From Minisyncoccia bacterium (GTDB taxonomy: Bacteria; Patescibacteriota; Minisyncoccia; Phycocordibacterales; Phycocordibacteraceae), in contig JBGPJZ010000003.1 in the NCBI GenBank assembly GCA_041485695.1, forward strand, positions 1-57,113: a stretch of 57,113 nt of DNA. The letters run 5' to 3'. A program made the translations under genes and the position numbers. Of the stretch, positions 5,151 through 33,300 are shown piece by piece (the stretch's first letter is position 1; each line of letters begins with the position of its first letter). Under the pieces are notes generated by a model. The model was not told the origin of the DNA. It searched no databases and saw only the letters and a list, made by a program, of their open reading frames with translations.

Positions 5151-5162
5151 TCGTACGCGAGT

Positions 5163-5191
5163 ATCCTAACAGCTCTCTCGTAAACCTGCAA
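5163..5191 (-). promoter_or_regulatory. Promoter for rplJL, TTGCAG-N17-TAGGAT
   Basis: -35 and -10 hexamers with a 17-nt spacer immediately 5' of the L10 leader. Confidence 0.6.
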
Positions 5192-5329
5192 TTAGTACTG
5201 CGCTACGCTCGCGGCATTCAGCGCTATGAGAGCGACGGCAATGAGGAGCGAGAAGCCAGCTGAAAATTTAACGAACTCGACGAAAAACGGGAGCGCGCGG
5301 CGTAGCTTGGTATCAGTTTGATTTTTCAT
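5192..5329 (-). CDS. Small membrane protein (45 aa, below ORF-track cutoff)
   Basis: MKNQTDTKLRRALPFFVEFVKFSAGFSLLIAVALIALNAASVAQY*. One hydrophobic helix, and the start overlaps the stop region of the upstream gene. Confidence 0.6.
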   Translation of the reverse strand: MKNQTDTKLRRALPFFVEFVKFSAGFSLLIAVALIALNAASVAQY

Positions 5330-20209: not shown

Positions 20210-20716
20210 TCACGCAGCGGCTGCTTCAAGCGCAGCATCAAGTTCGCTATCCGAGACGCCTTCCGCCTTCACTTCGGGCTCAGCGACCTTCATCGCCATG
20301 AGGCGCATCTCCGCTGCATGGCGCGCCGCATCCTTGGTCGTAATCACATCGATAAAGCGGGCAATGCGCCCCTCCTCCTTCACGGCCTCAAGCACCTTCT
20401 CGTGGTTTTGGGTTGAAGTCTCATACGCAATCCACGCAAAAAAGGCTGAATCGAAATCGCGCCGACCCGCGGTCTCTTGACGAGAGATTGTGTAGGCGAG
20501 CGGAATCTTCTCGGGCTCCCCTTCCGCAACGAGGGCTCCCTGCTTCTCGATAACATCCTTCACCGCCTGGTAGGCCTTCTTGACCTCCTCTGAAGGGAGC
20601 TCTGGGTCAAGATGAAAACCGAGTTCGTAGACATGTGAACCACCACCCTCGTCGGCCTCCGCGAGTTCATCCTCTGCGCTCCGCCAGCCGGCGGATCTGT
20701 CATCCTTCTTAGCCAT
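20210..20716 (-). CDS. rpsF: 30S ribosomal protein S6 with N-terminal extension
   Basis: YELGFHL, KIPLAYTI, position in the rpsF-ssb-rpsR operon. Confidence 0.9.
   Translation of the reverse strand: MAKKDDRSAGWRSAEDELAEADEGGGSHVYELGFHLDPELPSEEVKKAYQAVKDVIEKQGALVAEGEPEKIPLAYTISRQETAGRRDFDSAFFAWIAYETSTQNHEKVLEAVKEEGRIARFIDVITTKDAARHAAEMRLMAMKVAEPEVKAEGVSDSELDAALEAAAA
20680..20695. repeat. Palindromic element family A inside rpsF (encodes SAGWR)
   Basis: tccgccagccggcgga, 15/16 identical to the 11697 copy. Confidence 0.65.
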
Positions 20717-20728
20717 AATGAGGGCACT

Positions 20729-21733
20729 CTAGCATCTGTTTTTTGCCTTCGCAAGCACCTGATCTTGGAGTTTTCTGGTATTGCCATGCGAAAGGAGACC
20801 GAGATAGGAAGCGACCGTCTCTCTCTTTCCTTCTGTTTCTTCAATACGCCGGAACATTCTCCGCTTGGTTTTTGTCCGTAATACTCTATGGTCAGGAAAA
20901 TGCACCCAGCCGAGGAAATCAATGCCCGAAGCAAGCGTAGTAACTGAGACTTTATCCGGATGCATTTCAAGTTTCAACCGCTTCCGCAAAAACACTTCCA
21001 TATAGGGAAGTGTTTTAACAAGCCATGCGCGGTCTTGAGAGAGAAGAACGAAGTCATCAGCATATCGAATATAATATTTTACTTTGAGTTTGTGCTTTAC
21101 GAACTGGTCAAACTCATTCATATAGATGTTCACGAGAAGTTGGGACGTGAGATTGCCGAGCGGTAATCCTTTGCCGAAAGCAGTAGAGTGGAAACTTTCA
21201 ATTACGTTCCGCAATAGCAGTAGAATTTGTTCGTCGGAGATATTCCAGCGCAAAATGGTAAGCAAGGCCGGCTGGTCAATAGATGCGAAGAACTTGCGGA
21301 TGTCGCACTTGAGCACCCAGAGCGTTTTCGTGTGATTCTTACTTGCCTGATAGGCACGCCGTCGAAACATGTTCATCGCTCGGTGCGTTCCTTTCCCTTC
21401 TCGGCAAGAATACGAGTCCGCGATAAAGGTGCGGTCGAAAAAGGGGTAGAGTTTGCGATAAAGCGCGTGGTGGAGAAGCCGATCGCGCACGCTCGCTTTG
21501 TGGATATCGCGCGGCTTCGGGTCATTGATTTTGAAGTGTTCATACCCTCCATGCTGGTAGGTGCCAGAGACAAGATCGGCGTGGAGTTTCGAAATATTCT
21601 CTATAAGATTGTACTCAAACGCTTGCACATCTTTCTTCTTTTGCTTGCCACGGGCAAATTCCTTCCATGCATCGAGCAAATTTTCGGTAGAAATGATATC
21701 GTCGTAGGAATGAGAAATGCTGATTCCGCCCAT
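20729..21733 (-). CDS. DGR reverse transcriptase
   Basis: GLPLGNLTSQ and YIRYADDFV motifs, PRDIHKASVRDRLLHHA, KCDIRKFF. Start at ATG 21733 (or GTG 21760). The longer 432-aa ORF is antisense avd. Confidence 0.95.
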   Translation of the reverse strand: MGGISISHSYDDIISTENLLDAWKEFARGKQKKKDVQAFEYNLIENISKLHADLVSGTYQHGGYEHFKINDPKPRDIHKASVRDRLLHHALYRKLYPFFDRTFIADSYSCREGKGTHRAMNMFRRRAYQASKNHTKTLWVLKCDIRKFFASIDQPALLTILRWNISDEQILLLLRNVIESFHSTAFGKGLPLGNLTSQLLVNIYMNEFDQFVKHKLKVKYYIRYADDFVLLSQDRAWLVKTLPYMEVFLRKRLKLEMHPDKVSVTTLASGIDFLGWVHFPDHRVLRTKTKRRMFRRIEETEGKRETVASYLGLLSHGNTRKLQDQVLAKAKNRC

Positions 21734-22142
21734 TCTCTTGAGAGTACCCCCCCCCCGCACGGTTTCGCAAGAAAAATTGGTGCCGGTGGTGTTGAAATTG
21801 AAAGAAGCGTATCTCGCGTGGCAAACGGCGCTCCCCCACGTCAGCAAAGCACGTCGGCAAACCATCGCCGCACGCATTGATGCGGCACTTCTCGACACGC
21901 TTGAATACGCATTTCGCGCCGAGTATCTTTCAGGAGAACGGAAAATGGGTGCGCTTGAGACGTCTATCGCAAGACTTGATGTTGCTAAATTCTTTCTGCT
22001 TGTTGGATGGGAGTGCAACGCTATCACGAGCGCTCAACACTTTCGAATAGCCGGAGTTCTAGTTGATGCAAGCAAGATGCTAGTCGGCTGGCGTTCATAT
22101 CTTGAAAAGAAAACTCCCGCAAGCGGAGGCGGGAGAAAGTAA
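21717..22142 (+). CDS. avd: Avd (accessory variability determinant) four-helix-bundle protein
   Basis: VPVVLKLKEAYLAW...RQTIAARIDAALLDTLE...IARLDVAKFFL...ASKMLVGWRSYL follows the Avd pattern. Start could also be TTG 21778. Confidence 0.85.
   Translation: MLIPPILLRVPPPRTVSQEKLVPVVLKLKEAYLAWQTALPHVSKARRQTIAARIDAALLDTLEYAFRAEYLSGERKMGALETSIARLDVAKFFLLVGWECNAITSAQHFRIAGVLVDASKMLVGWRSYLEKKTPASGGGRK
22105..22135 (-). terminator. Terminator-like hairpin immediately 3' of TR
   Basis: Stem ctcccgc/gcgggag (22114-22135), followed on the minus strand by TTTTCTTTTC. Confidence 0.6.
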
Positions 22143-22147
22143 GACTT

Positions 22148-22255
22148 GTTTCGGACGAGAATGCGATTGTCAGCATTCCAGACGTTGCTGTTGTCGAGCC
22201 GGTTGACGTTCGAGTTCCAATCGCGCTCATCGCGATTGACGTTGCCAACCGAGAC
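22148..22255 (-). repeat. DGR template repeat (TR)
   Basis: 108 nt with 28 adenines, rich in AAC/AAT codons. Identical to the VR at all 80 non-A positions. Confidence 0.97.
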
Positions 22256-22510
22256 GCTTCGTGCCGCGCGCCATCCATTACGCCAGCGAAGGCCACCATC
22301 CCTTGAATACACCACAAGGGTGCTTCATTTTTCTAACACAGAGTACCGTGAAGAAAAACTGGTCGCTCTCGGGACTGTATCTAATTTGGGGCATTGAACC
22401 CACAAGCACGCGGCACCAACTTGTATTTCTTTTTTCGGGCGTTTTGTACCCGGAACCTCGCCACCTCAAGCGCATGGCCAGAGATGCCAGCGTGTTCAGG
22501 CAAAAGAATA

Positions 22511-22540
22511 CACCCTCCCGCCATTGTAGACGAGAGGGTG
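22511..22540 (-). terminator. GC-rich hairpin downstream of the DGR target gene
   Basis: 10-bp stem caccctcccg/cgagagggtg with one wobble, T-rich tail on the minus strand. Confidence 0.6.
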
Positions 22541-22576
22541 CAGGATTTCGACGCCCAAATACAGGGACCGGAAGGG

Positions 22577-23287
22577 TCAGAGTTTCGAAGCGTCCAAGTT
22601 GCGGACGAGAATGCGACTGCCAGCATCCCAGACGCGGCTGTAGCCGAGCCGGCCGACGCCCGAGCGCCAATCGCGCCCACCGCGAAAGACGTAGCCAACC
22701 GAGACGGGGTTATTTTTATCTCCAGTTTTCACCGGGAAAAAATTACCCCAGCCGTCGGTACGCATACCAGTCTTCTCACCGCGCTCGGTCTTCTCGGCCA
22801 TTTCTTCGGCTTGCGCTAAAGTCATGGTGTGACCGCGCGCAATGAGGAGTTCTCCGATTTCTTTGACTGGCGTGTCAGCCGAGACACCGAGAATCGGCGC
22901 AAACCACTTGACGAATGTTGCGTCCTCGGTGGAAGCGAGCGTCGTGATTGCGCAAGCGTCGGTTTTCGGCTGATTGGCCGGGAGCCAGCGGTCAAAGTCG
23001 CTGTCACGGCCGCCCCGTGCCCAGACACTGCCGACGAAACACTGTATCGTCTTCTTGGCAGCAACTGCGCCGAGTTGAGTTGTCGCGACTGATTCGAGCA
23101 GTTTGCGCGTCTCGACTCTCGCCGATACCGACGCCACTTCCGGAGGACCGAAGCCGGAAAGTAATGTCTTGGTTGCAGCTGGATCATCCATCCATCCGTT
23201 CATGGTTGCATCGTCCATTTCCGGCATGTTCTGAATGACGAAGCCGAGGAACGCGGCGGTTTTGTGGTCAAAGGCCTTCGCACTCAT
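22577..23287 (-). CDS. DGR variable (target) protein with C-terminal VR, probably CLec-type display; no signal peptide
   Basis: AAGGAG before ATG 23287. The VR encodes VSVGYVFRGGRDWRSGVGRLGYSRVWDAGSRILVRN. Confidence 0.92.
   Translation of the reverse strand: MSAKAFDHKTAAFLGFVIQNMPEMDDATMNGWMDDPAATKTLLSGFGPPEVASVSARVETRKLLESVATTQLGAVAAKKTIQCFVGSVWARGGRDSDFDRWLPANQPKTDACAITTLASTEDATFVKWFAPILGVSADTPVKEIGELLIARGHTMTLAQAEEMAEKTERGEKTGMRTDGWGNFFPVKTGDKNNPVSVGYVFRGGRDWRSGVGRLGYSRVWDAGSRILVRNLDASKL
22598..22705 (-). repeat. DGR variable repeat (VR)
   Basis: 19 differences from TR, all at TR adenines (12 A>G, 4 A>T, 3 A>C). Confidence 0.97.
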
Positions 23288-23366
23288 GTGCGCTTCTCCT
23301 TGTCGGACAGCCCGCGATTCCCAATGAATCAAGGTGCTTCCTAGATACCACTATACACCCATAGGC

Positions 23367-24197
23367 CTATTCTGTCAAGGTGTTATTGAAAATAGGCCGT
23401 ATTTTAAAGAGATTTTTGGCGTTTTGGAGGAGAGCTAAGTGGACGGTCTCAAAATCCTCCCCGCGGATTTCGGCGACCTTGGCGACAACATCTTGGACGG
23501 CCAAAGGGTCATTGCGGCTTCCGCGGGCGCGGTTGGTGGGTGGGACATACGGAGAGTCAGTCTCGGACAAAATCATATTGAGAGGCGCCGAACGAATAAC
23601 CTGATCGTAATCGCGCGCAAAAGTGATGACCGCAGTGAATGAAATAGTAAATCCAAGATCAAAGAAGGCCTGCGCCTCTCCTATACCACCCACAAAGAAA
23701 TGAATGTCGCCACGCAGATTTGGATGCGCAGTTTTCGCTTCTTTCAGAATCGCAATCAGGTCCTGATACGCGTCCATCGTGCCTTTAGAAGGGCGCGAGT
23801 GGATGATGAGCGGCTTATCAAGCTCCGCCGCGAGCGCGATATGTAGTTTCAAAACTGTTTTCTGCGTATTCTTGATTTCGTCATTCACTTCTGCCGGCCG
23901 AAAATAATCCAAGCCGCACTCCCCTATCGCGACGACTTTCGGATTCTCCGCAAGCAGGCGATACGTTGCGACATCAAACCCTTCTGCCTGTGTTCGATTC
24001 GGGTGCAACCCCACGGAGGCATAGAGATTCTCGTGGCCCTCTACCAACTCAACGGCTTTCCTTGAAGATTCAAAATCGCACCCGACCACAATCCCCGCCA
24101 CTTCTTGCTCTTTCATCTTCTCAATAATCTCTGCTTGATCTGTATCAAACGCATCGAACTGCACGTGGCAGTGCGCATCAAAATACTTCGCGTTCAT
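23367..24197 (-). CDS. tatD: TatD family hydrolase
   Basis: DAHCHV, VGLHP, IGECGLDY, IIHSR, ETDSPY. Confidence 0.95.
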   Translation of the reverse strand: MNAKYFDAHCHVQFDAFDTDQAEIIEKMKEQEVAGIVVGCDFESSRKAVELVEGHENLYASVGLHPNRTQAEGFDVATYRLLAENPKVVAIGECGLDYFRPAEVNDEIKNTQKTVLKLHIALAAELDKPLIIHSRPSKGTMDAYQDLIAILKEAKTAHPNLRGDIHFFVGGIGEAQAFFDLGFTISFTAVITFARDYDQVIRSAPLNMILSETDSPYVPPTNRARGSRNDPLAVQDVVAKVAEIRGEDFETVHLALLQNAKNLFKIRPIFNNTLTE

Positions 24198-27925: not shown

Positions 27926-29806
27926 TTATTGCACAGCCGCCTTCGTGGGGGTATAGCCGGGGTCGGTCGGGGTCTCGGTGGAGACAGAGCTCCCTGTCGT
28001 CGTTACTTGCACTTGGGCATAGCGATCAAAGGCTGAAAAAGCGGGGGCGCTCGTAAGCGTCGGAACCGAGCCGCGCTGACTCGTACTCGGGGTCAATACC
28101 ACCTGAAACGCCACCTGACGAGAGGCACCGCCACCAATGTCGCCCATCTGCCACGTAACGGCGTGCGAGGGCGCGTCATAGCTGATGGAGCCGTCAGAGG
28201 GCGATGTCACTCCAGGAAAGGCGATGTATGAGGGGAGCGTGGCTGAAACGACGGCGCCAGCAAGATCATTGCCTGCATTCGCCACGCTCCACTCTATAGT
28301 GTAGGTGGTCGGCTGATCTGCTTTCGGAGGCACGGGACCCGAATTTGCGAAGGGCCCCGATGCGTGGAGCGAGGCCGCAGTAAAGGTGACAGCGCTTACG
28401 AGCTTGATGACCTTCGAGGATGAAGCCGAGACCTGCTCTGGCACGCCTGACTGCCCGACGCGCTCACCAGCGATAGATACGGTGAGGGTGATGGCCGAGT
28501 TGCGCGGCGCGTTCGTAAGAGTCGAGAAGGTGAAGGTGCCAAGCCCCGAAGCGCCTGGCGCGAGTGAAGCCAAGGTCGCATCAGTGTCCCGACTAAAAAT
28601 GACGGTGCGGTCAGCCGAGCGATAAAAGCCGTTATGCGCCTGGACGCTTGCGGGATCGAGCGCCGCGCCGCTAATCGCAATATCAATCTCTGCATTAGTG
28701 AGCGGTACTGAAAGCGCGTTCGCCCACGCAACGCCAACGGTTACCGGGGCTCCGGGGGCGACGGCGGGAGCTGCGGCTGAACTCCCGTTCACTGTAAACG
28801 ACGTCGTGAGGAATGGCGCCGTGATGTTGATGCTCGCTTCTTGCGTCATGTAGCCTACCGCGAGCGAAGGGTCACTCGCTGCCTTCGCCGTTCCGATGGT
28901 GAAATGAAAAACGCGCACCTCATTGTTTTGGCCGTTCAATGTTCCCGTGAGCGTGACAGTTTTAGAAGCGCCCGGCTTCAAGGTCCCCAAGGGGAAATTG
29001 GTACCAACTGCGGGGAGCGAAGAGTCGGTGACGAGATAGCCGGCGGGGTATTGTGCCGCAAGCACGACCCCTTCGACAGGCTGCGTCGCGTTCGAGCGGG
29101 CTGTTACCCGTATCGTAAAAGGCTTCCCAGACACCGTTTCAGACACGGTATCGACTGTGACCGAAAGGGGCGCTGTCGAGATTACGACCGGATACGTCGA
29201 TTTTTTCACAAAAACAGCATTTGAGCGCGAGGTACCAAATGAGAGTGAAACCGAGATGGTCGGCTGCGCGCCCTGCGCTCCGAACAAGACCGCAGAGATC
29301 GAGCGCTCGACTGTCTCGCCCGGAGAAAGCGTCCCGAGATTTTCACTGAAACGTGGATATGCAGCGGTGACATCGGTCGCGCTCCTGGTACCTTCAGGGA
29401 AGGCCACTTCAAGAGTGGCATTTTCGACCGACGTGGAGTTCTTATTTGTGACGACGATCGAAAGGGGGACGGTATCGCCGCCGGCTACCGTAGTAGGACC
29501 TTGGATAGTGAGCTCGATATTATCTACTGATACCGTGTTACCCCCGGTATAAAACAAGAACGCCGAAACGCCAATGGAGATGACGAAAAAGGCGATGGCA
29601 ACAAAGAAGAAGCGTGATGCGAAATGCACGTGATGTGCGGCGCCGAAGGATGAGAGTTGCAAGCGTTCTTTCCACGCGTGCGGTATTGAAGAATCAGTGC
29701 TACGAGGAAACACCGGAGCCACGGGCGGAGAAGCCTCGCCTGGAGAGTAGAGGCGTTCACGCGCCTTACCAAGCGCGCTTAAACCAGGATCTTTCTCAGG
29801 AGGCAT
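27926..29806 (-). CDS. Single-pass membrane protein with tandem Ig-like/DUF11-like domains
   Basis: One TM followed by beta-rich repeats (YTIEWSVANAGN, VTWQMGDI). Start set at MPPEKD, 6 nt after TATAAT. Confidence 0.8.
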   Translation of the reverse strand: MPPEKDPGLSALGKARERLYSPGEASPPVAPVFPRSTDSSIPHAWKERLQLSSFGAAHHVHFASRFFFVAIAFFVISIGVSAFLFYTGGNTVSVDNIELTIQGPTTVAGGDTVPLSIVVTNKNSTSVENATLEVAFPEGTRSATDVTAAYPRFSENLGTLSPGETVERSISAVLFGAQGAQPTISVSLSFGTSRSNAVFVKKSTYPVVISTAPLSVTVDTVSETVSGKPFTIRVTARSNATQPVEGVVLAAQYPAGYLVTDSSLPAVGTNFPLGTLKPGASKTVTLTGTLNGQNNEVRVFHFTIGTAKAASDPSLAVGYMTQEASINITAPFLTTSFTVNGSSAAAPAVAPGAPVTVGVAWANALSVPLTNAEIDIAISGAALDPASVQAHNGFYRSADRTVIFSRDTDATLASLAPGASGLGTFTFSTLTNAPRNSAITLTVSIAGERVGQSGVPEQVSASSSKVIKLVSAVTFTAASLHASGPFANSGPVPPKADQPTTYTIEWSVANAGNDLAGAVVSATLPSYIAFPGVTSPSDGSISYDAPSHAVTWQMGDIGGGASRQVAFQVVLTPSTSQRGSVPTLTSAPAFSAFDRYAQVQVTTTGSSVSTETPTDPGYTPTKAAVQ

Positions 29807-29813
29807 CTCTCTA

Positions 29814-30353
29814 TTATAGACCGGAGAGCTCAATGCCGCGATTGATGCGCGTAACAAGCATAGTTCGGTCGCGACCTGCCTCGACGAGGTCAGGGATGCT
29901 GCCTGCGTCAAAGCCGAGGGATGAAAGGAGGCGGAGGACAGCGCGACATTCAATAGCTTCTGAAAGTGCCTCGGGTAGGGAGGTAAACGCAGCAAATGTC
30001 TCTGTAAGGAGAGCGAAGATTGCTGGGTCGGGAGTTTCGGCCGGAACAAGGCGTAACACAAGGCCTACGACGCGTGCCGCCCGTACCCGGGCGGCACGCG
30101 GAAACTCATTAAACCAATGCTTCGCAAGCGTAGCACCTGTTACTCTCCACCCCTCTGTCCCGCGGACGAGCGTGACGTCGCTCTCGGTAAAGGTCAAAAG
30201 CGCCGAAGCAAGCTTCGCCCCAGGCCGGCGCACCCCTTGCACTCGCGCGCGCACCAACCCAACATCGTGGGTAAGGAGCGTGACAAGCGCATTTGCCTCT
30301 CCAAGCGGAGTGCGTGCGATGACGAGCGCCCGAGTTCCATATTTATGCCGCAT
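29814..30353 (-). CDS. recO: DNA repair protein RecO (short)
   Basis: GEANALVTLLTHDVGLVRARVQGVRRPGAKLASAL OB-fold pattern. Start overlaps the ileS stop. Confidence 0.85.
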   Translation of the reverse strand: MRHKYGTRALVIARTPLGEANALVTLLTHDVGLVRARVQGVRRPGAKLASALLTFTESDVTLVRGTEGWRVTGATLAKHWFNEFPRAARVRAARVVGLVLRLVPAETPDPAIFALLTETFAAFTSLPEALSEAIECRAVLRLLSSLGFDAGSIPDLVEAGRDRTMLVTRINRGIELSGL

Positions 30354-33300
30354 CAACGATGAGATTAAAGGTGACCATACCTGTTGAAAGCTCGACCGAG
30401 TACTTCCCTCCCGGCACTCGCTCAGCATACGCTTTGTCTTTAGGCGAGAGGCCTTCGGCCTTTCTCGCCTCCGCAACCGCGCGCGCCATCTCACGCTCAT
30501 CGCCCTCTTTTATGAGCGCGGGTGTAAGGTGTGTATCAAGAGAATATGACGGCGCGTCCTGGCCCAAAGGGGCTAGCAGGACTTTTTTAACGTTTAACTC
30601 TTCTGCAAGGATCTGTGCTACATCATTCCACAGCGGAGGAGGCAGGAAAGAATGTTTAATTGTGAAAGATGCTAAAGGTTGTCGTACTTTTATTTCAGCT
30701 CGTTGCCGCGCTTGAAGTCCGAAAGAGGCGATTCCGCGCGCGAGTTGCATGGCCGCAAGAATATCTCGGTCTTTTTTGTTATCAAAAATGCTTAGCCACG
30801 AACGCTTCACAATTGGCCATGCTGCAAGATGCACGCTCTCCGGATCATCATGACTGCGGACTTTTCTGAAGACGTCCTCCGCGATAAATGGCGCAAAGGG
30901 AGCGATAAGGAGCGAGATCGTGCACAACGTTTCGCGGAGCGTTTCAGTCGCGGCCGCATCTCCCTCGCGCGCACGGTCGCGGATGCGCCGCACATACCAC
31001 TGCGAGAGGTCCTCGCAGAGCGCGGCAATCTCACGCGACGCGTCATACAAATGGTATTCATCAAACGCCTCGGTCACTCTCCGCGTCGCTTGTGCGACGC
31101 GCGTCTTCATCCATCTGTCGATTATTTGCTCCTTTCCTTCTTTCTTTTCTCCCGCGAACAATTCGTAAAACTTCGCGCTATTCTCGAGCCAAGAAATGAC
31201 ACGCGCAGACTCTTTGAGCGTTTTTTCATCATAGTTCTTAGAGTCTCCTGCCTGATTGACGTAGTACATCCAGAAGCGGAGCGTATCAGCGCCCCACTTC
31301 TCTATTTCCGCCCACGGCTCGACGACATTCCCCTTCGACTTGCTCATCTTCTTCCCTTCTGCATCGAGCAGGTGCCCGAGGCAAATCACGTTTTTATACG
31401 CACGACCGCGACCCATCAAAACCCCGACCGCGAGCAGGGTGTAGAACCATCCGCGCGTCTGATCAATCGCTTCTGAAATGAAGTCGGCGGGATACACGAC
31501 GTGTTTTGGCTCCTGCGCAAAGGGCATCGAGCCGGAATCGAACCATACGTCCATGACCTCGGGTACTCGCCGCATCTCCTTTCCCGAATCCGAAATCAAA
31601 ACAACGTCATCAATGTATGGCCGATGCAAATCGAGCTCGTAATCGTCATTGTGAGAAAGAGGTACGAAATCAAGCTCGCGCGACCGCCCCGTTGGCATAC
31701 TGAGTCCGGCGATGAGACGTTTCGATCCGTGCCTGTCTGCGCCTTGTGCTACGGCGCCCAATGTCTCGACACCGACGCCATGGGTAATGATGAGGATATG
31801 TTGACCCGCCTGGCGGCGTTCAATATCGTGCAAAAATGCTCCGAAGCGGTTCTTTGCGTCCTGATAGCTCTCGCCGCCTGGGACTTTATCGTCATACTGA
31901 TGCCCATCACGAAATGACTGGAAGTCGGCTATGGGCCGATGGTTAAAATCGCCGAACTCAAATTCGCGCAAGCGGTCATCGTAGGTGATGTTCTCTTTAG
32001 GAATAGCGAGTAGCTCCGCAACAATCTCGGCTGTCTCCCGTCCGCGAAGGAGCGGTGAAGCGTAGATGCGAGTTGTGCGAGAGAGCGCACGAGTTGCAGC
32101 TTTGACTTCAAGTTTCCCTTGCAGGGTCAATGGATTCCCGGCTCGATCATTGTTCGCCATACCCTTTACGTTGTGCTCGGCCTCGCCGTGGCGCATCACA
32201 AAATATTTGTTGTCTGATTTTTTGGTACGCTTTTTTAATTCAGCGACAGAACCTATAACCAGCCGCTCCTTTTTGTCGGCAGTCTCCCAGACCGGGAGCG
32301 GCGTCGCCCAATAGCGCTCGCGCGAGATCGCCCAATCCTTTACATTCGCGAGCCACTCCCCCATGCGTCCATCACGGATATGTTCCGGCTCCCAACGAAT
32401 CTTCTGATTTTCCGCAACAAGCTCGTCGCGCACCTCCGACATGCGGAAATACCACGAGTCGCGGGCATAGTAGATGAGTCGCGTCTTGCACCGCCAACAA
32501 AAGGGGTACGTGTGCGTGTATGACTCTTTTTTGAACAACAGGTCGCGTGCCTGCAAATCCTTCAATATTTCAACCGACGTCTCTTCTTCTACGACCGAAC
32601 GACCAGCAAGGAATCCGGTGCCTTCGATAAACTTCCCGTCCGGTGCAACTAAATGCACTTTCGGCAGTCCGATTTTCTGTCCAAGTTCAAAGTCGTCCTG
32701 CCCATACATCACGGCTGTATGAACGATACCCGTCCCCTCTTCGGTGGTTACGAAATCTGCAGCATACACCTGAAACGCCTTATCAAACTTTTGTTTCTCA
32801 GTTTCCGGCGCGAGATTTTTCGCAAAGTCGTAGAGTGGTTTGTACTTCTTGCCCACGAGATCAATGCCTTTGACGAGCCGTAGGGGTCGCGAAGAAATAG
32901 TCTGGCCGAGCGAAGCGAGGAGACCCGAGGACTTTTCTGCAGCGACTCCTGCGGCGAGGATGAAGCGCTCTCCGTTGACTTCGTGCACGCTATAGTCAAT
33001 ATCCTTCCCAACCGCGAGGGCAACGTTCCCCGGCAAGGTCCACGGCGTCGTCGTCCAAGCAAGGAGATACGTGCCGGGTTCGTCAACGAGTTCAAATTTC
33101 GCGGTGATCGTTAAATCTTTTACGTCCTCATATCCTTGCGCGAGTTCGTGCGAGGAGAGCGCAGTGCCGCACCGCGGGCACCAGGGCACCACTTTATAAT
33201 CCCTGTAGAGCCGGCCGTCGTCAGAGACTTTTTTGAAAATACCCCAGAGCGCCTCCATGTAGGAGGGGTCGGAGGTGAAGTAGGCCGAGGACTGGTCCAC

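Follow-up and report, generated by a model that had tools for sequence, protein, structure and literature searches.

A complete chromosomal diversity-generating retroelement in a Patescibacteria genome, with a conserved structured RNA domain upstream of its template repeat

Diversity-generating retroelements (DGRs) are abundant in CPR bacteria, where they were reportedly first described by Paul et al. in 2017; to our knowledge, no CPR DGR has been studied mechanistically, and we know of no function assigned to their targets. The norm among them is the B3 layout, defined as TR-(avd)-RT with avd on the reverse strand (Wu et al. 2018, PMC5758913), and their targets typically lack transmembrane (TM) segments and conserved domains (PMC8144416). 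In the DGR of Bordetella phage BPP-1, which has the order mtd-avd-TR-brt, the essential RNA comprises 20 nt upstream of the template repeat (TR) and a 140-nt spacer downstream of it (Handa et al., bioRxiv 10.1101/2023.10.23.563531).

The window analyzed here, a 57,113-nt stretch of a 0.62-Mb Patescibacteria genome, contains a 2.6-kb cassette that is a complete, chromosomal and self-contained DGR of the CPR type. The parts follow one another from the target gene through the TR and an inverted avd to the reverse transcriptase (RT); as in architecture B3, the avd-like gene on the plus strand (21717–22142) is located between the TR (22148–22255) and the RT (20729–21733), both on the minus strand. 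The same target-TR-(avd)-RT order is repeated in nine more species-level related genomes. One genome of the same genus carries the label Candidatus Kaiserbacteria. Host group, inverted-avd order, a cellular rather than phage-linked setting, an AAC/AAT-rich TR, and a small target with no recognizable domain, TM segment or signal peptide are all shared with the described CPR DGRs (Wu et al. 2018, PMC5758913; clade 2 of Roux et al. 2021, PMC8144416), from which the window DGR does not differ in its basic parts list. An earlier note on this DNA had already remarked that DGRs are known in CPR. The DGR identity proposed in that note is upheld by the RT, by the pair formed by the TR and the variable repeat (VR), and by the target ORF. 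Its description of the element as complete also stands, but its parts list was an understatement: the DGR is more complete than had been stated, as it also has avd in inverted orientation and a structured RNA dedicated to it. The features are as follows.

23350 to 23378, minus strand: promoter-like site of the target gene (TTGACA-17-TATAGT, 11 of 12 matches), overlapping the 3′ end of tatD.
23287 to 22577, minus strand: target (variable protein) gene, an ORF of 236 amino acids plus stop, with an AAGGAG box 8 nt before the ATG at 23287.
22705 to 22598, minus strand: VR, 108 nt, target codons 195–230, with a second allele in assembly L005.
22509 to 22542, minus strand: terminator-like hairpin after the target stop, 14 pairs and then TTCTTTTG, with an equivalent in all related loci.
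22505 to 22510, minus strand: −10-like box TATTCT, 7 nt ahead of the RNA domain, which begins with the conserved GAACACGCTGGCAT.
22256 to 22497, minus strand: conserved structured RNA domain, ~240 nt, directly 5′ of the TR.
22255 to 22148, minus strand: TR, 108 nt, the same in all four assemblies of the population.
22105 to 22135, minus strand: hairpin after the TR, a 7-bp GC-rich stem (CTCCCGC/GCGGGAG) 12 nt past the TR, then TTTTCTTTT.
21717 to 22142, plus strand: avd-like gene on the opposite strand, starting at ATG 21717 or at TTG/GTG 21777/21780.
21747 to 21756, no strand assigned: G10/C10 homopolymer, between or overlapping the 5′ ends of avd and RT.
21741 to 21770, minus strand: promoter-like site for the RT (TTGCGA, 18-nt spacer with a G-run, TACTCT, 7 nt to the ATG).
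21733 (ATG) to 20729 (stop), minus strand: DGR reverse transcriptase gene, 334 amino acids plus stop, with RVT_1, LGNLTSQ and YADD.

The RT, whose stop codon lies 12 nt ahead of the rpsF start codon, matched RVT_1 (E = 6.5e-24), and the ORF contains both motifs reported earlier, the motif 4 form LGNLTSQ and the catalytic YADD, which correspond to [LIV]GxxxSQ and YxDD in the DGR clade. Its closest solved relative is the BPP-1 RT: the best PDB match was to the 8ub7–8ube series (E = 4.6e-44), a series that we understand to show the Bordetella phage bRT described by Handa et al., whereas a group II intron RT matched at 6e-19, a gap of 25 orders of magnitude. The RT also matched phrog_1423 (E = 6.6e-111), and all of its matches to the RT models of NCBIfam, a collection without a DGR-RT model, fell far below their cut-offs. 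The plus-strand gene at 21717–22142 encodes an Avd homologue. Its product matched NF033474 (DivGenRetAVD) over the full profile at E = 1.1e-6, scoring 28.9 bits against a curated cut-off of 80, and matched phrog_3206, annotated as the Avd protein of DGRs, at E = 1.9e-8; all ten Avd members of the lineage matched NF033474 (best E = 3.3e-13), and a lineage profile searched against PDB sequences returned no Avd match. Translation from ATG 21717 would read through the C-run, and the homologues in loci L014 and L020 begin at the position of V22. Like the BPP-1 DGR, the element has an Avd homologue, mutates adenines specifically, carries its VR at the C-terminus of the target, and shows a fixed difference between TR and VR at the 3′ end as well as a stem-loop immediately 3′ of the TR; unlike that DGR, it encodes avd on the opposite strand, is not phage-borne, and has a target that is not detectably Mtd-like.

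Alignment of the TR with the VR reproduced the coordinates and counts given in the earlier note, with no difference at any of the 80 non-adenine positions (31 C, 28 G, 21 T) and changes at 19 of 28 adenines of the TR (12 to G, 4 to T and 3 to C). Under random placement, the probability that all 19 mismatches would hit the 28 adenine positions is ~(28/108)^19, or ~7e-12. The two repeats are the sole long direct repeat within 20600–23500, and TR/VR mismatches are confined to adenines in 10 loci of the lineage. Located at the 3′ end of the 236-codon target ORF, the VR has 11 AAC or AAT codons, and stop codons are unreachable by A-to-N change. Sixteen codons are changeable when Asn230, which lies beyond the 3′ limit, is left out; counting it, there are 17, encoding ~1e16 possible proteins. 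At the 3′ end, where in DGRs a fixed difference between an IMH in the VR and an IMH* in the TR marks the recipient, the TR reads CGAAAC and the VR CGCAAC. This difference is fixed in nine of 10 loci of the lineage as well as in the C5 paralogue, and there is no long GC-rich IMH of the BPP-1 kind. A 4–5-bp hairpin ~22 nt downstream of the VR in six loci was visible by eye, with weak support from DNA folding (z-scores from +0.4 to −3.9) and none from RNAalifold, which found no consensus pairs; a GC-rich inverted repeat downstream of the VR has been found in just 34% of DGRs (Wu et al., PMC5758913). A scan for remote VRs, suggested by the earlier note and carried out by BLAST and by adenine-blind search across all 12 contigs of the genome, found none for the window TR and uncovered two further complete DGRs with unrelated targets.

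We compared four near-identical assemblies, those of the window, L005, L060 and L061, of which L005 is an independent metagenome contig; the samples behind the last three are JGI 3300053058 and 3300052992 and SRR29604911. Identity look-up with the RT and with the 140-aa Avd retrieved three independent contigs, TatD and the 141-aa Avd as queries returned none, and an exact-pattern scan of JGI metagenome contigs for the 60 nt upstream of the VR gave 0 matches. Over 3416 nt, 23 positions separate the window from L005, 18 of them within the 108-nt VR, where 17 of the 18 substitutions fall at TR adenines; outside the VR they differ by two SNPs and one 3-nt homopolymer change. L060 and L061 have the window sequence, VR allele included, and the four assemblies together contain two VR alleles. 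The presence of two VR alleles among otherwise identical assemblies indicates that at least one full-length mutagenic homing event occurred very recently, and with only 2 SNPs in 3.3 kb separating the backgrounds of the alleles, this event is younger than almost all neutral divergence. That a single allele is common to three of the four assemblies suggests that diversification is episodic or strongly selected, rather than continuous. The earlier description of the element as recently active therefore has support beyond the TR/VR mismatches, and we hold with high confidence that the window contains a recently active DGR.

The site at 21741–21770 on the minus strand may be an RT promoter of leaderless-type geometry, and its pattern is repeated in L006, L011, L012 and L013. 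The homopolymer at 21747–21756 is 10 nt long in the window and 7 in the three other assemblies of the population, and tracts of G9–G11 occupy the equivalent place in nine related loci and in the two paralogous DGRs of the genome. These lengths bear on an improbable reading of the locus, that the DGR is intact yet currently switched off or decaying, with the two VR alleles as relics of past events. G7 in three of the four assemblies departs from the lineage-typical G9–G11 and would shorten the predicted promoter spacer from 18 to 15 nt, and the window, L060 and L061, three of the four assemblies, have a single VR allele in common, without SNPs. Against this, every part is intact and the TR unchanged, the two-SNP distance between the allele backgrounds places the homing event very recently, and G7 is present on the allele-2 contig itself.

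Between the target gene and the TR lies the RNA domain, closed by a 12-bp long-range helix that ends 5 nt ahead of the TR. RNAalifold predicted 34 pairs, 16 of them compensatory; 98.1% of cells were paired, compared with 39–48% on sliding, and 0 of 500 shuffles reached the observed values. A covariance model built without the window matched it only at 22422..22252 (76.6 bits), and the held-out model gave one match per DGR, always just 5′ of the TR, including those of the two paralogous DGRs with unrelated targets. Among 41 genomes, matches were found in 13 of 18 that were RT-positive and in 0 of 23 that were RT-negative (Fisher p ~5e-7), and the domain had no match in Rfam. This arrangement differs from that of the BPP-1 DGR RNA in placing a large covarying domain upstream of the TR, with only a hairpin and a U-run downstream. 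A BPP-1-like duplex between the TR flanks was also considered and is unsupported, as RNAduplex energies were no better than those of shuffles.

A TAnnnT box was found by eye at the same distance from the RNA domain in 11 of 11 loci inspected, and we propose that the box at 22505–22510 is the promoter of the template RNA. At the other end, the hairpin at 22105–22135 could be either a template-RNA terminator or an Avd-binding stem-loop, roles that are not mutually exclusive; it is kept with compensatory changes in 10 loci and is also found behind the orphan TR of L019, where avd is missing. We lean towards a template RNA that is a stand-alone transcript. A rather unlikely alternative is that the hairpin corresponds to the Avd-binding stem-loop of BPP-1 rather than to a terminator, and that the functional RNA is a long TR-RT co-transcript in which the antisense of avd serves as the spacer. 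Stem-loops of putative Avd binding occur just past the TR in 207 of 278 Avd-containing DGRs (Handa et al., bioRxiv 10.1101/2023.10.23.563531), and the T-run after the window hairpin overlaps E-K-K codons conserved in the opposite-strand avd, which partly explain it. However, the L019 cassette, consisting of target and TR with no avd or RT behind them, retains the 5′ domain and, after the TR, a strong hairpin followed by a T-run, its VR still has 18 A-site changes, and a conserved promoter-like site of leaderless geometry belongs to the RT itself.

The target consists of an N-terminal helical module (approximately residues 1–58), a conserved core and the C-terminal VR, and its relatives comprise 48 homologous clusters and 1059 representatives. 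It matched no domain in Pfam (even at E ≤ 10, FGE-sulfatase and DUF1566 included), NCBIfam or PHROG, and the family HMM returned only noise from PDB sequences. Prediction of the fold, which had been recommended in the earlier note, gave a confident AF2 model of the core (pLDDT 93.3, pTM 0.89); the changeable codons alternate along a predicted beta-hairpin and the loop that follows. Foldseek searches with the full-length and core models against PDB, and with the core against BFVD, found no match at E < 0.1. As in the CLec-fold variable proteins Mtd, TvpA, archaeal AvpA and Thermus TaqVP, the variable residues are in the last ~35 of a compact alpha/beta domain, but no significant structural or sequence match links the target to those proteins. 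Its sole lectin-like signals were a non-significant best match of the core to Bd2740, an adhesin tip with a variant of the CLec fold (E = 0.19, TM 0.36/0.51), and a weaker one to the lectin domain of BDCA2. With neither a domain match nor a significant structural neighbor, the function of the target is, as was noted before, not evident.

C83 and C112 are near-invariant in the target family. These cysteines could hint at an oxidizing compartment. At least five types of N-terminal module replace one another within the family, and we consider it most likely that the target is a soluble binding module, coupled to a partner through its interchangeable N-terminal helical domain. On balance, its location is probably the cytoplasm. 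The absence of a signal peptide, claimed earlier for the window protein, holds across the family, in which a crude hydropathy test found an N-terminal hydrophobic segment in 0 of 42 members; the window protein also has no TM-like stretch, and secretion genes are unlinked to the cassette both here and in related loci. These observations speak against a less probable but substantial alternative, in which the target undergoes export or surface display, for example to attach to a host cell, by a non-classical route or by docking through its N-terminal module. Other episymbiotic CPR bacteria attach to a host cell. In favor of export, most cellular DGR targets are surface proteins (PMC8144416), the two cysteines are invariant or nearly so, module swapping fits a docking adaptor, and the adhesin tip that ranks as the best, although non-significant, structural neighbor has a C-type lectin fold.

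The cassette is flanked by genes for a TatD_DNase (E = 3.9e-66) and ribosomal protein S6, with SSB, S18, EF-P, a sigma factor, RecA, MetRS, an AI-2E transporter and a class II aaRS also encoded nearby; this annotation agrees with the earlier placement between the core genes tatD and rpsF, away from phage genes. The genes metG-tatD-rpsF-ssb are contiguous in most congeneric genomes, with a tatD-rpsF gap of ~100 nt in ~17 of 24 congeners, indicating that the cassette is an insertion. Insertion relative to congeners, together with the differing sites that the cassette occupies in different genomes, is what would be expected if it were part of a prophage or other mobile element diversifying a receptor-binding protein. 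We regard this as very unlikely, since no phage, integrase or transposase genes were found within 10 kb, no convincing flanking direct repeats or target-site duplication were seen (one 9-nt exact match in a 22-nt, 73% repeat), the target has no PHROG match and no relatives among the 2.9 million viral contigs of IMG/VR, and CPR DGRs form a cellular clade (PMC8144416). A phage origin as such was rejected on the neighboring genes and the PHROG and IMG/VR searches.

Taken together, these features suggest a mechanism in which a stand-alone RNA of ~400 nt (22498 to ~22105, minus strand) would be transcribed from a −10 box of its own, immediately past the terminator of the target gene, and bound by RT and Avd. 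The RT would be expressed from its own leaderless-type promoter, with a slippage-prone G-run in the spacer, and Avd from the other strand. The RT would then copy the TR into cDNA, misincorporating opposite adenines, and the cDNA would replace the VR up to a 3′ limit marked by the fixed difference between CGAAAC in the TR and CGCAAC in the VR. In its most extended form, which we offer tentatively, the proposal is that CPR-type (B3) DGRs have a separately transcribed RNA gene of ~400 nt, in which a covarying domain of 100–245 nt upstream of the TR, and not a 140-nt downstream spacer, recruits RT and Avd; that the poly-G tract in the RT promoter spacer gates the supply of RT and makes diversification phase-variable; and that the target family is a new, non-lectin scaffold of massive variation that acts inside the cell.

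The points new here are the 5′ covarying RNA domain, the hairpin with a U-run after the TR, and the poly-G tract of variable length. In the CPR DGR papers compared (PMC5758913 and PMC8144416), we found no mention of the 5′ RNA domain, the poly-G tract, the insertion site or VR allele turnover. The window locus is a clean, compact and demonstrably active CPR DGR with its parts mapped to the base, making reconstitution in E. coli conceivable. Its RNA domain, which shows strong covariation, is strictly linked to DGRs and is not in Rfam, offers a handle on RNP assembly in inverted-avd DGRs, a question left unanswered by the BPP-1 structures. The target family, which numbers over 1000 representative clusters and has a confident model but neither a Pfam domain nor a structural neighbor, is a good candidate for structure and ligand studies. 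With three DGRs taking up an estimated ~1.3% of a 0.62-Mb genome, the locus also indicates the size of the investment that a minimal cell makes in targeted hypermutation.

The diversity-generating retroelement (DGR) claimed for 20729-23287 in the earlier note is real and was rightly interpreted. [quoted passage not shown] Against solved structures, the RT was closest to the 8ub7-8ube series (E = 4.6 × 10−44), which presumably represents the bRT complexes from Bordetella phage (Handa et al.); the group II intron RT match was at 6 × 10−19. All element parts save the accessory gene avd lie on the minus strand:

23287..22577, minus strand, target ORF (236 aa), with an AAGGAG box upstream
Upstream of the target ORF, minus strand, promoter-like site TTGACA-17-TATAGT
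22705..22598, minus strand, VR (108 nt), target codons 195-230
22255..22148, minus strand, TR (108 nt)
21717-22142, plus strand, avd-like ORF between TR and RT, encoding an Avd homologue
21747-21756, G10/C10 run in the spacer of the RT promoter-like site
21733..20729, minus strand, RT ORF (334 aa)

The element is complete, as had been claimed, and also holds an avd between TR and RT that the claim had left out. The Avd ORF matched NF033474 over the whole profile at E = 1.1 × 10−6, under the curated cut-off; 10/10 members of the Avd lineage matched the same model (best 3.3 × 10−13), and PHROGs labels the product ‘Avd protein of DGR’. The layout with an inverted avd is already known, and the element fits the established class of CPR DGRs as a typical member. 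Nine further species-level genomes share the target-TR-(avd)-RT order, at identities of 60–74% for RT and 27–80% for Avd, and TR/VR mismatches are confined to adenines in 10 loci.

Three accompanying features, a 5′ RNA domain, a TR hairpin and a poly-G tract, are well supported and were not found described in the literature examined. The VR-TR spacer is conserved among related loci and holds, in order, the target’s terminator, a TAnnnT box, 7 nt and the conserved GAACACGCTGGCAT. For the domain before the TR, RNAalifold predicted 34 pairs, of which 16 show compensatory changes; among the pairs is a 12-bp helix closing the domain 5 nt ahead of the TR; 98.1% of cells were paired, compared with 39–48% when partners were slid, and 0/500 shuffles attained any observed measure. 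Rfam gave no match to the domain. A covariance model of its 3′ 100–170 nt only, built from eight other species with the window held out, found a single match in the window (22422..22252, 76.6 bits), both paralogous DGRs and nearly every relative’s DGR. In the cases checked (both paralogues and genomes G017 and G024), matches lay just 5′ of the TR or ~500–530 nt upstream of the RT. Of 41 genomes, 13 matched, every one of them RT-positive, and the 23 RT-negative genomes gave no match. One further match, at 5155-5271 of locus L008, lies downstream of a target homologue without a TR/VR partner in the scan; this locus probably holds a DGR that the TR/VR scan missed.

A GC hairpin of 7 bp, succeeded by TTTTCTTTT, lies 12 nt past the TR, and 10 loci have counterparts that show compensatory changes. 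In the Bordetella phage BPP-1 DGR, the essential RNA comprises 20 nt upstream of the TR and a 140-nt spacer downstream of it that starts with an Avd-binding stem-loop (bioRxiv 10.1101/2023.10.23.563531). The window hairpin may be such a stem-loop, a terminator, or both. The two systems differ in that the essential RNA of BPP-1 is mainly downstream of the TR, whereas the covarying domain of the window is upstream; no flank-to-flank duplex around the TR exceeded shuffles. The Zambryskibacteria contig MHWB01000011.1 carries two target and TR cassettes (L019, 5001-5970; L021, 5001-7277) with near-identical TRs ~60 kb apart, and avd and RT at only one of them. Behind the TR of the orphan cassette, L019, there is no avd, but the 5′ RNA domain and a terminator hairpin are retained and the VR shows 18 A-site changes, suggesting trans-acting RT and Avd.

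In every lineage locus and both paralogues, a G9–G11 run precedes the RT start by 10–13 nt or more, and nine related species conserve it at the same place. In the window, G10 falls within the 18-nt spacer of a promoter-like site of leaderless-type geometry (TTGCGA, spacer, TACTCT, 7 nt, ATG), compared with G7 (C7) in three other, otherwise near-identical assemblies. From this sequence pattern we offer, as a hypothesis only, that slippage at the tract might gate RT expression.

The host genome (619,902 bases, 12 contigs, 97% complete) holds two more complete DGRs, each with an inverted avd:

Contig C5, ~28566-31070, DGR L062
Contig C6, ~30263-32873, DGR L063

Their RTs are 75% identical to the window RT, and each has its own TR/VR pair with adenine-only mismatches, a poly-G tract and a 5′ RNA domain; by tblastn, their targets do not resemble the window target. 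In C5, the VR terminates in ...FFSRN and shares the CGAAAC (TR)/CGCAAC (VR) difference found in the window. A remote-VR scan across the genome, as had been suggested, yielded no remote VR for the window TR. Neighbour annotation confirmed the site between tatD and rpsF with no phage genes nearby: one flank carries recA, neuB, a sigma factor, efp, rpsR, ssb and rpsF, the other tatD, metG, an AI-2E transporter and an aaRS. Because metG-tatD-rpsF-ssb is contiguous in ~17/24 congeneric genomes, with a tatD-rpsF gap of ~100 nt, the cassette is an insertion here. Related cassettes occupy other sites in other genomes, and neither flanking repeats nor mobility genes were found around the cassette. Four congeners (L038, L042, L045 and L048) have tatD-rpsF gaps of 700–1280 nt, against the usual ~100 nt, that lack homology to RT, avd or target; insertions may recur at this junction. 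Within 20717-20740, 12 nt separate the RT stop codon from the rpsF start codon, the stop falling in a TAGAGT box 9 nt before the rpsF ATG, and the sequence suggests that the insertion provides the rpsF promoter or overlaps with it.

The target family comprises 48 clusters at 90% identity and 1059 representatives (E ≤ 1 × 10−3, 50% library); homologues derive from Minisyncoccia/Paceibacterota metagenome-assembled genomes, and none were found in viral contigs. Pfam, NCBIfam and PHROG models did not match the family. The suggested fold prediction gave a confident AF2 model of the core (residues 59–236; pLDDT 93.3, pTM 0.89), but Foldseek found no significant structural neighbour in PDB or BFVD. 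The best match, at a non-significant E = 0.19, was Bd2740, described as a C-type-lectin-fold variant (PMC10769870), and a divergent lectin-like fold is possible for the modelled target. The VR spans 17 adenine-containing codons, 16 of which vary in one or both alleles; the invariant one, Asn230, lies beyond the inferred 3′ limit. All 17 could encode ~1 × 10^16 proteins, with stop codons unreachable. Variable codons alternate on predicted strands 193–203 and 206–213 and the loop after them, which suggests, as judged from predicted secondary structure only, that the variable residues form one exposed face. By a crude hydropathy test, the reported lack of a signal peptide extends to the whole family, with an N-terminal hydrophobic segment in 0/42 members. 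This, and the occurrence of five or more types of N-terminal module, is in line with Roux et al., in whose account CPR targets typically carry neither TM nor conserved domains and have a location that ‘remains to be established’ (PMC8144416). In P0144, a 926-aa representative, the target-domain profile matched five separate stretches, so tandem copies of the domain can exist within one large protein.

Recent activity, also proposed in the earlier note, was judged from independent assemblies of the same population (L005, JGI 3300053058; L060, JGI 3300052992; L061, Logan SRR29604911), and the evidence for it is good. L005 differs from the window at 23 sites across 3416 nt. Eighteen are in the VR, 17 at TR adenines and one at a T adjoining an A; the others are one spacer SNP, one rpsF SNP and a 3-nt homopolymer difference. 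The TR is identical in 4/4 assemblies. Two independent short contigs (one JGI, one Logan) both end exactly at window position 22774, within the target gene and 69 nt upstream of the VR, which may reflect either a junction that varies among strains or a break in the assembly. The concentration of L005 differences in the VR indicates that one or more full-length homing events postdate almost all of the population’s neutral divergence. L060 and L061 equal the window, VR included, save for the same homopolymer difference as L005; since one VR allele is thus common to three assemblies, VR turnover in this population looks episodic or selected.
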